A DNA stretch of 64,000 nucleotides. Origin: an uncultured Myxococcaceae bacterium. Lineage in GTDB: Bacteria > Myxococcota > UBA727 > JABDBI01. This document shows positions 7,314 through 11,436 of this stretch, piece by piece. The notes below the pieces were generated by a model that was not told where the DNA came from, did no database searches, and was given only the letters and a program-made list of their open reading frames with translations. The stretch lies in the NCBI GenBank assembly GCA_964635635.1, contig CAZWPE010000006.1, positions 42,488 to 106,487 of the forward strand. The letters run 5' to 3'. A program made the translations under genes and the position numbers. Position 1 is the first letter of the stretch. Each line of letters opens with the position of its first letter.

Positions 7314-8477
7314 ATGTACGATCGTCTGGTTAAGCTGCCAAAAAATAAGAGTTTTTTTCTTTTTGGAGCGAGAGGGGCCGGCAAGTCAACCTTGCTCAAG
7401 TCAGCCTTTCAAGATGCAAAACCTATGGTGTTCGACCTATTAGACGTGGAATTGGTTGATGAACTGAGTCTGTACCCCAAGCGATTTGTCGACCGCATTG
7501 GCAAAAACAGCAATACTGTAATTGTTGATGAAATTCAAAAACTACCCAAGTTACTAGATTATGTTCATGCTCTGATTGAAGAAAAAAAACTCCAATTTAT
7601 TTTGACAGGCTCTAGCGCCAGAAGACTCAAACAAAAAGGCACCAACTTACTGGCAGGACGAGCTCTGGTCAGAGAACTCTATCCATTTTCAACTTTTGAG
7701 CTCCAAGGACATTTTGACCTCACGAAGGCACTTCAGCGCGGGGGACTTCCCGAAAGTTATCTGGCTTCTAGCGACGAAGAATCCAACGATTACTTGCGTT
7801 CCTATACATTAACTTACTTAGAGAAAGAGATTCAGCAGGAGCAATGGGTAAGAAAGCTTGAACCATTTCGAAGATTCCTCATGATTGCAGCACAGATGAA
7901 TGGCAAAATCATCAATCGCTCTATCATCGCCAGGGACTTAGGAGTCGACGATATGACTGTTGAATCCTATTTTGAAATTCTAGAAGATACTTATATTGGC
8001 TTCAGGCTACCAGCATTTCACCGTTCACCTCGTAAGCAAATGAAGCAATCGCCTAAATTTTACTTAATCGACCCAGGCTTAAAAAGAAGTCTGGAGCGAA
8101 CAACACGCGTGCCCTTGTTACCTCAAACCAGTGCTTTTGGAGATGCTTTTGAGCATTGGGTGATTTTAGAATTTTTGAAACTATCAAAATATTTGGCGTT
8201 GGACTGGGAGCTCTTTTACGCTCAAACCAAAGAGGGTGCGGAAATTGATTTGGTCATTACCCGGCCAGGTCAACCACTCTTACTGGTAGAAATCAAATCA
8301 AAAGAAGTCGTTACGAAAGAAGACGCCAAAACCTTAGAAACTTTAGGGAACGAATACCAAGAAGCCACTGAAAAATGGCTTTTATCTCGAGATCCTGTTT
8401 CACAAGAATTTGGAAGCACACAAGCAATGCACTGGTTGGATGCTTTAAAAGGTCGCATCTTACAAGCTTCAAATTAG
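7314..8477 (+). CDS. AAA_14 + DUF4143 ATP-binding protein (copy 1)
   Basis: Walker A GARGAGKS, Walker B IVDEIQ, LTGSSAR, LAGRA, PKFYLID, C-terminal EIDLV…LVEIKS PD-(D/E)xK-like motif. Confidence 0.9.
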   Translation: MYDRLVKLPKNKSFFLFGARGAGKSTLLKSAFQDAKPMVFDLLDVELVDELSLYPKRFVDRIGKNSNTVIVDEIQKLPKLLDYVHALIEEKKLQFILTGSSARRLKQKGTNLLAGRALVRELYPFSTFELQGHFDLTKALQRGGLPESYLASSDEESNDYLRSYTLTYLEKEIQQEQWVRKLEPFRRFLMIAAQMNGKIINRSIIARDLGVDDMTVESYFEILEDTYIGFRLPAFHRSPRKQMKQSPKFYLIDPGLKRSLERTTRVPLLPQTSAFGDAFEHWVILEFLKLSKYLALDWELFYAQTKEGAEIDLVITRPGQPLLLVEIKSKEVVTKEDAKTLETLGNEYQEATEKWLLSRDPVSQEFGSTQAMHWLDALKGRILQASN

Positions 8478-8498
8478 TTTTGATTTTAAAACCTTAAA

Positions 8499-8561
8499 TG
8501 GCGGGGTGGACGGGACTTGAACCCGCGGCCTCCGGCGTGACAGGCCGGCGCTCTAACCAGC
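8499..8561 (-). pseudogene. 5'-truncated tRNA-Asp(GTC) copy (3' 63 nt)
   Basis: Identical to the 3' 63 nt of the full copies, including CCA; diverges where the 5' 14 nt should be. Confidence 0.9.
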
Positions 8562-8610
8562 CAAGCACCAGTAGGCCGTGAATCGGCCGTTAAAAATCAA
8601 GTCACAACAC

Positions 8611-8700
8611 TTGACCTATCAAGGACTTATGCTGTACAAAATTAGATATGAACTTCGATTTTGTCCAACAATTGCGCCATATCACTTCGGATTTGTCACA
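8611..8700 (+). promoter_or_regulatory. Putative promoter and imperfect direct repeats upstream of ATPase copy 2
   Basis: TTGACC(8611)-18 bp-TACAAA(8635); atatgaacttcgattttgtccaacaat and atatcacttcggatttgtcacaat are imperfect direct repeats ending at the ATG. Confidence 0.45.
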
Positions 8701-9867
8701 ATGATTCCTCGTTTGTTAGAGCTTCCGAGAGATTATAGCATACTGCTATTTGGGCCCAGAGGTTGCGGTAAGAGCACCCTTGTTCAATCTATTTTTTCGA
8801 GCAGCGCAGCGTATCGCATCGACCTATTGGAAGCCAGAGTAGAGCAAGAGTATGCATCCAACCCTGATGAGTTAATACCCGTCATACGGGCCCTTCATCC
8901 AAACATTAGCCACGTAATCATTGACGAAGTCCAAAAGGTCCCAAAGCTTCTGGACGTTGTTCATAAGCTTATCGAGGAAAAGGTCCCTCAGCAGTTTGTC
9001 TTAACCGGCTCGAGCGCCCGCAAACTAAAACGAGGCGGAGCAAATCTGCTCGCAGGAAGAGCCTTTGTTTATCACCTTCACCCATTTAGTTTTCTCGAGC
9101 AAGGAACCAATTTCAACCTGAGGATAGCCCTTGAGTTCGGACAGCTCCCGCGCGTTACACAGCTCCCGAATGCAGCTTCAAAAACGCGGCTACTGCAGAC
9201 CTATGTTAGCACGTACCTTAAAGAAGAAATAGCTGCCGAACAGCTGGTGAAGAATCTGGCGCCTTTTCGGAAGTTTTTAGAAGTTGCCGCACAAAGCAAT
9301 GGCAAAATTGTCAATTTTTCGAATATTGCCAACGACACAGGAATCAGTGACCGCACCGTCAAAGAATACTTTTCGATCCTAGAAGATACCCTAGTTGGCT
9401 TCTTTTTGGAGCCCTATGCGGGCTCTTTCAGAAAGCGCCTCGGGCAGAAACCTAAATTCTATCTATTTGATTTGGGCGTAGCTCGCGCTCTCAATCGAAC
9501 GCTCCCTGTAGCGCTTCTACCCCAAACAAAAGCCTATGGCGATGCCTTTGAGCACTTCGTGATTTTAGAGATTCACCGCCTGGTTTCATACTTTCTGCCC
9601 GACTATCGTTTGTCATATCTGCACACCAAAGATGATGAAGAAATTGACCTTATTGTCGATCGACCTGGTCAACCTCTGCTCTGTATTGAAATCAAGAGCG
9701 CGACAGATCTCACAGAAGACAATTTGAATAAGTTCGCCTCTCTGGTTAGCGGTCTTCCCGGCTCCGAGGCTGTCTGTCTATACAACGGTCAGGTTGAAAA
9801 GTTATATGGATCCATTAGAGTTATCCCGTGGGCCGAAGGTATCAAGCGATACTTTTTTCGATCATGA
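8701..9867 (+). CDS. AAA_14 + DUF4143 ATP-binding protein (copy 2)
   Basis: GPRGCGKS, IIDEVQ, LTGSSARKL, LAGRA, PKFYLFD, EEIDLI…IEIKS; start moved to MIPRLL by alignment with the paralogs. Confidence 0.9.
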   Translation: MIPRLLELPRDYSILLFGPRGCGKSTLVQSIFSSSAAYRIDLLEARVEQEYASNPDELIPVIRALHPNISHVIIDEVQKVPKLLDVVHKLIEEKVPQQFVLTGSSARKLKRGGANLLAGRAFVYHLHPFSFLEQGTNFNLRIALEFGQLPRVTQLPNAASKTRLLQTYVSTYLKEEIAAEQLVKNLAPFRKFLEVAAQSNGKIVNFSNIANDTGISDRTVKEYFSILEDTLVGFFLEPYAGSFRKRLGQKPKFYLFDLGVARALNRTLPVALLPQTKAYGDAFEHFVILEIHRLVSYFLPDYRLSYLHTKDDEEIDLIVDRPGQPLLCIEIKSATDLTEDNLNKFASLVSGLPGSEAVCLYNGQVEKLYGSIRVIPWAEGIKRYFFRS

Positions 9868-9901
9868 CTCTAAAGCGCTGTTTTGATTTTAAAACCTTAA
9901 A

Positions 9902-9978: not shown

Positions 9979-10090
9979 TTTCATTTGAAAGGGGGAGTTG
10001 CCCTTGTAGGCGTATTCAGTGAAGGTACCCGGCACTACAGGTTAACAGGCTTGTACTAACAACCAGTTCGGCATTTTTAATGGCTCTCGC

Positions 10091-10127
10091 TTGCCAATAG
10101 CGTGAAAACATAATAATGTTATTATGT
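10091..10127 (+). promoter_or_regulatory. Putative promoter with 9-bp inverted repeat over the -10 element
   Basis: TTGCCA(10091)-17 bp-TAATGT(10114); acataataa-tg-ttattatgt (10108-10127). Confidence 0.55.
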
Positions 10128-10158
10128 CGTGCATTTTAACATTATGCTTTGGTGAGCC

Positions 10159-11334
10159 ATGAAAAATCTTAATCGCCTATTAACACCCCCGACTGATTCC
10201 TTTTTCCTGTTTGGCCCAAGAGGTGTAGGCAAAACAACTTGGGTTCAAGAGCATTTTTCAAATAGTTTACGGCTGGATCTATTGGATAGTCGACTCTTTT
10301 TAAAGCTTTCGAAGGAACCCGCTCTTCTATCTGCCATTATCGGAAACCTGCCTAAAAACTCCTGGGTCTGCATTGATGAAATCCAGCGTGTCCCCATGTT
10401 GCTCAATGAAGTACAGCGTCTCATGACAGAAAAATCTTTCCGATTTGTACTGACAGGTTCATCGGCTCGCAAATTAAAAAGACAGGGTGCGAATCTGTTG
10501 GGTGGGAGAGCCCTCGTTGCCAACATGGAAGGACTTAGCTGCCAAGAATTAGGGGCCCATGCGAACATTAACTCTCTCATAACCATGGGCACCTTACCTT
10601 TGGTTGTTAATAAACCTGATCTGGCTAAAGATATTTTGGATGCCTATCTTTCAACCTACATCAAAGAAGAAATCCGCGAAGAAGGTATTATTCGCAAGGT
10701 AGAGCCATTCCTAAGATTTATAGAGATTGCCGGAGCAATGAATGCGCAAAAAGTGAACCACCAAAATATCGCGAGAGACGCAATGGTGCCCGGAAGTAAT
10801 GTCCAGAATTATTTCAGCATTTTGGTGGATACATTGGTGGGCCATTTCCTTCCGGCATATCGGCCTGCCCTTAAAGTTCGTGAAGTTAGTCATCCCAAAT
10901 TTTATTGGTTCGACCCCGGCGTGGCCCGGGCTGCAGCAGGGATGATGCGCGAAGAGATTGAGCCCGTTAGTCTTGGCTATGCATTGGAAACGCTTGTATA
11001 TCATGAACTCAGGGTATTTAATCAAACCCACAATAAGCATAGAAATATTTATTTTTATGAAACCGGAGCCGGATCTGAGATTGATTTTGTGATTGAAAAC
11101 CGCAAAAAAACGCACTCTCAGAAAGCCTCCCTGGTATGTATTGAGGTTAAGAATTCAAAAACCTGGAACAGTAGTTGGGAATCAGCTATTCGAAGCGTTC
11201 AAAAAGAAAATAAAGTAATTGTCGAAAAAGCCATCGGGATTTACCGTGGCCATGAAAAGCTCGAGTTTGAAAACTTTACTGTCTATCCAGTTGAGCAGTT
11301 CATAAGATTTCTGTACCAGGGAGCAATTTTTTAG
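10159..11334 (+). CDS. AAA_14 + DUF4143 ATP-binding protein (copy 3)
   Basis: GPRGVGKT, CIDEIQ, LTGSSARKL, LGGRA, PKFYWFD, EIDFVI…IEVKN. Confidence 0.9.
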   Translation: MKNLNRLLTPPTDSFFLFGPRGVGKTTWVQEHFSNSLRLDLLDSRLFLKLSKEPALLSAIIGNLPKNSWVCIDEIQRVPMLLNEVQRLMTEKSFRFVLTGSSARKLKRQGANLLGGRALVANMEGLSCQELGAHANINSLITMGTLPLVVNKPDLAKDILDAYLSTYIKEEIREEGIIRKVEPFLRFIEIAGAMNAQKVNHQNIARDAMVPGSNVQNYFSILVDTLVGHFLPAYRPALKVREVSHPKFYWFDPGVARAAAGMMREEIEPVSLGYALETLVYHELRVFNQTHNKHRNIYFYETGAGSEIDFVIENRKKTHSQKASLVCIEVKNSKTWNSSWESAIRSVQKENKVIVEKAIGIYRGHEKLEFENFTVYPVEQFIRFLYQGAIF

Positions 11335-11359
11335 AATTGTTTTGATTGCCAACCTTAAA

Positions 11360-11436
11360 TGGCGGGGTGGACGGGACTTGAACCCGCGGCCTCCGGCGTG
11401 ACAGGCCGGCGCTCTAACCAGCTGAGCTACCACCCC
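11360..11436 (-). tRNA. tRNA-Asp(GTC), probable native copy
   Basis: Identical 77-nt sequence; minus-strand upstream TTGACG-18 bp-TACAAG promoter-like motif is intact only for this copy. Confidence 0.97.

Follow-up and report, generated by a model that had tools for sequence, protein, structure and literature searches.

How does a stack of single-gene cassettes grow beside one tRNA gene when no integrase is encoded around it? The question is raised by a 64,000-nucleotide stretch of DNA (the window; contig CAZWPE010000006.1, C6:42488-106487) from an uncultured Myxococcaceae bacterium whose genome is a 1.81-Mb draft of 11 contigs with 45% GC, and in which three intact AAA_14+DUF4143 genes (named here ATP1, ATP2, and ATP3) alternate with three copies of tRNA-Asp. 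At a probability of roughly 0.6, we hold the array to be a stack of three independent single-gene insertions beside the only tRNA-Asp gene, each of which left a second copy of the target end, with the repeat being borne by the cassette itself. Judged by their profiles, the three genes are candidate anti-phage genes like PDC-S01, an ATPase-PD-(D/E)xK family that is reported to rank fourth in frequency among the defence systems predicted in prokaryotes and whose validation is pending (PMC12988326). The mobility of single defence genes without a transposase or integrase is poorly understood, and for PDC-S01 nothing is known of it. This locus and its parallels at groEL and tRNA-Arg provide a concrete, testable footprint, namely a cassette with its own promoter accompanied by a copy of about 30-260 nt of a conserved gene end. 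A footprint of restriction-modification genes is thereby extended to ordinary cargo and to a further conflict gene that bears a nuclease, and conserved gene ends are pointed to as landing pads that work across species.

The tRNA-Asp array

ATP1 (7314-8477, 387 aa), ATP2 (8701-9867, 388 aa), and ATP3 (10159-11334, 391 aa), all on the plus strand, each converge on a tRNA-Asp copy on the minus strand. Two full-length tRNA-Asp(GTC) genes, identical to each other, were located by ARAGORN at 9902-9978 and 11360-11436, and a partial tRNA was recovered with Rfam at 8507-8570 (40.8 bits). Repeat copy 1 (8477-8561, minus strand) consists of a 22-nt 3' trailer and the 3' 63 nt of tRNA-Asp, and matches 9880-9964 at 85/85 nt. 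The latter belongs to copy 2 (9880-10023, minus strand), which comprises the trailer (9880-9901), the full tRNA, and 45 nt of the leader. Copy 3 (11338-11493, minus strand) is the native unit, with a variant trailer (11338-11359), the tRNA, and a leader that is conserved in the related genomes G006, G012, and G016 and contains a -10 box TACAAG (11464-11469) and a -35 box TTGACG (11488-11493). The leader 5' of the tRNA is duplicated between copies 2 and 3 (9971-10023 versus 11432-11484, 79%), so that the repeats around ATP3 extend over about 147-166 nt at 88% identity, their non-tRNA parts being about 78% identical, and the boundary of the 22-nt trailer is common to all three copies. To the right follows hpf, encoding a ribosome hibernation factor (11511-12053, plus strand) and the conserved neighbour of tRNA-Asp, and then rapZ. 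The alternation of ATPase and tRNA-Asp units, the identical tRNAs, and the 85-bp identity had all been described in an earlier note made by reading the sequence, and ARAGORN, Rfam, and self-comparison agree with it. Its further claim that sequence upstream of the tRNA is repeated holds for copies 2 and 3, the remnant after copy 1 being too short to judge.

The 1.81-Mb genome has no tRNA-Asp gene outside the array, and the doubling of the cell's only tRNA-Asp gene is regarded as a minor side effect. In the leader of copy 2 (9979-10023, compared with 11437-11493 in copy 3) the -10 box TACAAG is retained and the native -35 box TTGACG is missing.

With a draft genome of 11 contigs and repeats of 85-147 nt, it might be supposed that an assembler had strung together strain variants lying 3' of a shared tRNA. 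Such an artefact is very improbable, however, because each junction is unique sequence (the truncated tRNA against the ATP2 promoter; the diverged leader against ATP3) and is reproduced in Logan contigs made by an independent assembler from run SRR16481186, which correspond to window positions 8532-9909, 9949-11380, and 11407-12463 at 100%. These contigs stop exactly 30 nt inside the repeats, as is expected of a k=31 assembly graph; ending where they do, they attest each junction rather than the order of the middle units or a lack of free circles. All the unique junctions hence exist in the reads, and an identical architecture was found in four other genomes. The three-gene array is therefore confirmed to be real, with repeats far beyond chance.

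Separate origins of ATP1, ATP2, and ATP3

When 98 sequences were arranged in a maximum-likelihood tree, the three array proteins fell into three different clades with SH-aLRT support of 99-100, none of them being the closest relative of another and no lineage-specific clade being formed. More than 100 database homologues were retrieved for each gene at 53-91% identity, as against 35-47% among the array members (47, 35, and 40% in the pairwise protein comparisons). The closest database records are labelled Myxococcaceae. The closest homologues (77-91%) are lone genes beside groEL, ileS, topA, or DUF179/spoU with no tRNA nearby. At locus L048, a protein 77% identical to ATP1 is flanked by ClpX and IleS that are only 58% identical to those of this genome, and this greater similarity of the ATPase than of its flanking genes points to horizontal transfer. 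The adjacency of tRNA-Asp and hpf is retained in five genomes of the bacterial family. In the three whose flanks were read (G006, G012, and G016), a single tRNA-Asp is followed by hpf and rapZ on one side and by a subtilase or beta-lactamase-like gene 3' of the tRNA, with no ATPase. With three clades in the tree and no array in relatives, the array is lineage-specific and was built by serial acquisition, and we take the phylogeny to show that the three genes have serial, independent origins.

The regular unit structure and the identical tRNAs could alternatively be explained by an old tandem duplication of one ATPase-tRNA unit, in which the ATPases diverged and the tRNAs were held identical by selection or gene conversion, tRNAs being conserved in any case. 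This account is extremely improbable and was rejected on the three well-supported clades; moreover, foreign homologues are far closer than the array neighbours are to each other, every gene has its own conserved promoter and operator, and relatives are without the array. The earlier note had likewise inferred serial acquisition rather than recent tandem duplication, and had asked whether the proteins branch apart, which they do. Its argument from the identity of the tRNAs carries little weight, as tRNAs are conserved at 90-94% across genera anyway.

The genomes of relatives contain anywhere from 0 to 22 members of the family. When metagenome and genome collections were scanned by exact pattern for the junction of tRNA and trailer, no match was returned, and a metagenome scan with hpf recovered distant relatives only, at most 57% identical. 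The family decays as well as expands: at C2:7899-8471 of this genome lies a 5'-truncated DUF4143 remnant, 57-58% identical to ATP1 and ATP2, with REP-like elements on its flanks.

The same footprint in this genome and in relatives

Self-comparison of the genome revealed direct repeats bracketing two further DUF4143 genes, one formed by the last 39 nt of an upstream open reading frame (ORF) (C3:94273-94311 and 95642-95680) and the other by the last 118 nt of an FHA-domain gene (C4:64355-64473 and 65889-66007). At least five other single genes, among them those of secreted or effector-like proteins and of a DUF1963 protein, are bracketed in the same manner, and the targets in this genome include the 3' ends of the FHA-domain gene and of a lipoprotein-like gene. 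Bracketing was counted for 4 of the 10 DUF4143 genes and for 12 of the 1682 other ORFs (Fisher p = 1e-6, or 5e-5 with the array counted once). What had seemed a repeat around the truncated gene at C2:7899 was not included in this count, being a REP-like palindromic element rather than a target duplication. The insertion after the FHA-domain gene on contig C4 could not be compared with an empty site, as the relatives are too diverged at the nucleotide level; no ATPase follows the orthologous gene in them.

The clearest parallel was met in a very close relative (L045; GCA_964484075.1, contig CAZAEV010000035.1, positions 1-3330; GroEL 99% identical, groEL DNA 91%), in which an ATP2-like gene and a eukaryote-like SET-domain gene are set between three copies of the terminal 75 nt of groEL. 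The corresponding site in our genome (C1:122945) is empty, with one copy as against three. In G003, which represents another genus (L058, C60:16542-20681, with the array at positions 174-2694 of that locus), tRNA-His and tRNA-Arg(tcg) are succeeded by an arginase-family gene, a 32-nt piece of the tRNA-Arg 3' end, a DUF4143 gene, a second 32-nt piece, miaA, and mutL, the 32 nt being present in three copies. Further bracketed cases were found at L046, L162, L168, and L183 with repeats of 41-264 nt, those of L168 being identical at 51/51 nt. A stop codon or CCA coincides with the end of the repeat, or lies no more than about 2 nt from it, in the cases of C3, C4, groEL, L168, and tRNA-Arg.

Repeat-bracketed insertion is thus a general route of single-gene gain at the 3' ends of conserved genes in this bacterial family. 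Since the same footprint occurs at protein-coding 3' ends, the tRNA is no special target, and since it accompanies arginase-family, SET-domain, and secreted-protein cargo, it is not specific to the ATPase family. The earlier note had proposed single-family cassettes anchored on the tRNA; the restriction to one family falls with the unrelated cargo that takes the same route, and of the anchoring only the part played by homology stays viable and slightly favoured, the tRNA as such having lost its privileged place. A tRNA-linked function, which that note had entertained, and tRNA-specific targeting were both rejected, for the other seven DUF4143 genes of the genome and the closest homologues of all three array genes do not lie beside tRNAs.

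Two loci in this genome have the look of similar insertions of very recent date: at C5:114346-116175, the 3' end of a MaoC-like gene forms a 224-nt repeat (98%) on both sides of a gene for a 323-aa secreted protein, and at C1:211433-212917 a 315-nt repeat (99%) lies around two 175-aa ORFs (C1:210656-211183 and 212061-588).

How the array may have been built

In the reading that we prefer, a cassette, in the form of a small circle or fragment, would take one copy of the repeat along and would enter through a single Campbell-type crossover within the conserved end of the target, brought about either by host homologous recombination or by some enzyme acting in trans; repeated integration would then stack the cassettes. 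The oldest event would probably have placed a truncated vapC-like gene together with ATP1, leaving behind a 140-nt piece of hpf that is now 74% identical to hpf. The next would have placed ATP3 with a repeat of about 147 nt (trailer, whole tRNA, and 45 nt of leader), and the latest ATP2 with the 85-nt repeat that is still 100% identical. ComEC and DprA are encoded in the genome and Ku is absent, a combination compatible with a cell that takes up foreign DNA and recombines it.

A repeat carried by the cassette as a homology anchor is slightly favoured over a duplication made at insertion on several grounds. Repeat ends coincide with a stop codon or CCA in most cases, as they should do if the carried copy stems from a different strain or species, in which conservation is limited to the gene itself, and the trailer boundary is common to all three tRNA-Asp copies. 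In copy 3 the leader is native and the trailer variant; in copy 2 it is the leader that is variant, the trailer being that of copy 1. One crossover within the tRNA would be expected to give just this reciprocal pattern. Similarity to the flanks of an ATP3-like gene at L046 appears on both sides of ATP3: the variant trailer of copy 3, TTTTGATTGCCAACC, matches the sequence after that gene, TTTTGATTGCAAACC, and the region at about 10047-10090, upstream of the ATP3 promoter, resembles its left flanking repeat.

Several observations weigh against this account. The match between the copy 3 trailer and L046 is short (15 nt), and neither a circle nor an excision product nor a polymorphic site was met in the assembled sequence. 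The sequence of the cassette ends is not fixed, and the first acquisition of a new target copy is not accounted for. On its left, the hpf piece lacks the tRNA and leader that are predicted there, and the possible leader remnant after copy 1 conflicts with the simplest order of events. Finally, most DUF4143 genes of the taxonomic order are without bracketing repeats, which were present at 3 of 22 further loci sampled, and this means that the footprint is either short-lived or one of several routes.

The duplications might instead have been made at insertion, through widely staggered breaks, perhaps cut by the PD-(D/E)xK nuclease of the cassette and filled in around the incoming DNA. Such an origin would suit the perfect repeats of ATP2 (85/85) and L168 (51/51), the variation in repeat length from 32 to 264 nt, and the frequency of nucleases (DUF4143, Uma2) among the cargo, and breakage has been proposed as a common property of such insertions (Furuta 2010, PMC2853133). 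It nevertheless appears unlikely to us: arginase-family, SET-domain, and secreted-protein cargo bears the same footprint, random staggered cuts would meet a stop codon or CCA less often than the repeat ends do, the trailer boundary does not move among the three tRNA-Asp copies, and repeat-like sequences of L046 stand on both sides of ATP3. The remaining candidate is an integrase working at a distance. The cassettes would then be miniature integrase-less elements (cis-mobilizable-like, or cargo-only satellites) moved in trans by tyrosine integrases, and the repeats would be attL and attR; indeed, copy 1 and the tRNA-Arg pieces of G003 are 3' parts of tRNAs ending at CCA, as classical att sites are. 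Copy 1, in resembling a fixed 3' tRNA segment of 63 nt, still bears the 22-nt trailer, however, and copy 2 spans the whole tRNA and 45 nt of its promoter leader. No integrase was found in the 64-kb window, as the earlier note had said, or in or beside the arrays of this genome and its relatives, and the four tyrosine-recombinase matches and one resolvase match of the genome are all on contig C1, with the window on C6. There, the genome has an integrase in an island of 49 kb at tRNA-Arg(acg) with perfect 48-nt repeats, and one more non-Xer integrase besides; yet these two candidates would have to serve at least eight targets of unrelated sequence, and one of them is bound to tRNA-Arg(acg), a gene that has no more than 20 nt in common with tRNA-Asp. 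As the inner repeat boundaries also vary and no array has a linked integrase, we consider movement in trans quite unlikely.

The C1 island (C1:460374-509512, about 49 kb) is a classical integrative element with an adjacent 372-aa tyrosine integrase; its perfect 48-nt tRNA 3' repeat lies at C1:509465-509512 and ends at CCA, and a small resolvase is encoded at C1:468395.

A broader speculation, to which we give little credence, would generalise the cassette-borne repeat to this small-genome family. Recombinase-free cassettes would carry the 3' end of a conserved gene (tRNA-Asp, tRNA-Arg, groEL, and others) in order to integrate and stack, in an integron-like capture without an integrase, with PDC-S01 genes as the commonest passengers whose nuclease might promote the event.

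Relation to known modes of insertion

Insertion with long target duplication of restriction-modification genes is reportedly treated by Nobusato et al. in 2000. Furuta, Abe and Kobayashi (2010, PMC2853133) described such insertions for restriction-modification units without a transposase or integrase, flanked by direct repeats of more than 30 bp and of variable length that in many cases overlap a tRNA or a gene's 3' end and are present as a single copy in genomes without the insert, mostly in bacteria with DNA-uptake genes. Their criteria were an insert of less than 20 kb free of transposase, integrase, and prophage genes, a repeat of more than 30 bp on both sides, and a single copy of it in an insert-less relative. 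The present inserts, of about 1.3 kb, hold one gene each and no mobility gene; repeats of more than 30 bp lie on both sides (85 nt at 100% for ATP2 and about 147-166 nt at 88% for ATP3). A single tRNA-Asp with a conserved leader and no ATPase occurs in G006, G012, and G016, a comparison in which the trailer part of the repeat cannot be aligned to the other genera, and the groEL site of L045 is the cleanest case. The cargo is a nuclease-encoding conflict system here too, and ComEC is present in this genome. On the other hand, the cargo is a single-gene PDC-S01 candidate instead of a restriction-modification system, unrelated non-defence genes are carried as well, several cassettes are stacked at one site, and the boundaries tend towards a stop codon or CCA. 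The tRNA-Asp array bears the footprint of insertion with long target duplication, and integration by a single crossover would be our proposal for its mechanism. The class of event is thus published and its mechanism unsolved; what is added here is the family of the cargo, its stacking, and the statistics on enrichment.

Tandem accretion at tRNA genes is familiar from the cis-mobilizable elements of Streptococcus and the tycheposon islands of Prochlorococcus, systems that depend on a tyrosine or serine recombinase and on att sites of fixed extent. In them too, units are inserted one after another at a single tRNA gene, are separated by partial copies of the tRNA, and in some cases have no integrase of their own. 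The array differs in that no recombinase is linked to it, one repeat takes in the entire tRNA and part of its promoter, and many unrelated protein-coding genes also serve as targets. The integration of circular DNA carrying a chromosomal fragment, known as insertion-duplication or Campbell-type integration, is a mutagenesis procedure in naturally transformable bacteria. It yields the same layout of target fragment, insert, and target fragment, and repeated events stack the inserts; it is a laboratory procedure, however, and natural circular donors have not been demonstrated for these cassettes.

The ATPase-nucleases and their promoters

All three ORFs matched the Pfam families AAA_14 (E 1e-22 to 1e-24) and DUF4143 (E 1e-27 to 1e-33), and all three proteins matched the PDC-S01 profile of PADLOC (E 1e-52 to 1e-67), a hit that lends substance to the possible defence role raised in the earlier note. 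They are predicted to consist of an AAA+ ATPase, a winged helix, and a PD-(D/E)xK nuclease domain, and the combination of ATPase and PD-(D/E)xK is known for the AAA_14+DUF4143/COG1373 family (PMC12988326, PMC3424549). The Walker A (G23/K24), Walker B (D72/E73), and D...ExK (D312/E326/K328) residues are invariant across 51 homologues. A structure model with a pLDDT of 91.6 resembles STAND/ORC-type ATPases with a winged helix, to which a C-terminal nuclease domain is added. A sequence search of the PDB found no solved relative, and a fold search gave generic AAA+/STAND matches only. Going by sequence and model, the proteins most likely act in defence through ATP-dependent sensing and cleavage of nucleic acid. 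The cargo, being AAA_14+DUF4143, includes no methyltransferase and is not a restriction-modification system. The array proteins themselves do not differ from the PDC-S01 family, and what is new lies in their mode of insertion and their stacking.

The start of ATP2 is most likely the ATG at 8701 rather than the GTG at 8578, since its homologues align from there. The nucleotide homology of orthologous cassettes is confined to the segment from the -35 box of a clade-specific promoter to the stop codon, which indicates that the moving unit is promoter plus gene, about 1.25-1.3 kb with one gene each; the comparison of orthologous cassettes disclosed neither fixed cassette ends nor terminal inverted repeats. 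Base composition carried no foreign signal, with the cassettes at 42-47% GC and the window at 45.7%. The ATP1 promoter (TTGACC-17-TATTAT) at 7266-7309, plus strand, is overlapped by a perfect inverted repeat and putative operator, and the same promoter and inverted repeat also precede genes of this clade in L042, L048, and G004. The ATP2 promoter region (8605-8700, plus strand) moves with its gene, being homologous at the nucleotide level to L045 and L050 from about 8633-8635 and sharing a TTGAC -35 box at about 8609. The sequence carried with ATP3 (10024-10158, plus strand) includes its promoter and a palindromic operator (about 10104-10158).

Each ATPase clade has its own conserved palindrome over the promoter (window 7267-7309, about 8635-8700, and about 10125-10150), that of ATP1 being a perfect 19-nt inverted repeat, TGACCTCACTCGGAAATAA / TTATTTCCGAGTGAGGTCA. 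The palindromes are kept in orthologous cassettes of other genomes and are probably autoregulatory operators for the winged-helix domain.

Flanking sequences

The left end of the array adjoins the end of a gene of the exported phosphodiesterase family (5841-6713). A decayed piece of hpf (6779-6918, plus strand) follows, corresponding to nucleotides 13-152 of the gene, 74% identical to hpf 11523-11662 and giving a weak S30AE Pfam match. This pseudogene piece is closer to the hpf of its own genome than to that of relatives, and is the oldest duplicated piece of the target region. Abutting it is a 5'-truncated remnant of a vapC-like PIN toxin gene (6940-7236, plus strand), with a frame open from 6940 that covers positions 78-117 of the 120 in the PIN profile.

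Further to the left, window positions 722-6713 hold a block of glycosylation and phosphotransfer genes whose third-position GC is low, at 0.33 in the gene at 5841-6713. As this block is not found beside tRNA-Asp in relatives, the whole region 3' of tRNA-Asp is a variable hotspot. A REP-like palindromic repeat (core CCCTCTCCACCCGTGGAGAGGG) is dispersed over the genome; it occurs elsewhere in the window at 31100-31171 and 35380-35451, and has copies on contigs C5, C6, and C7.

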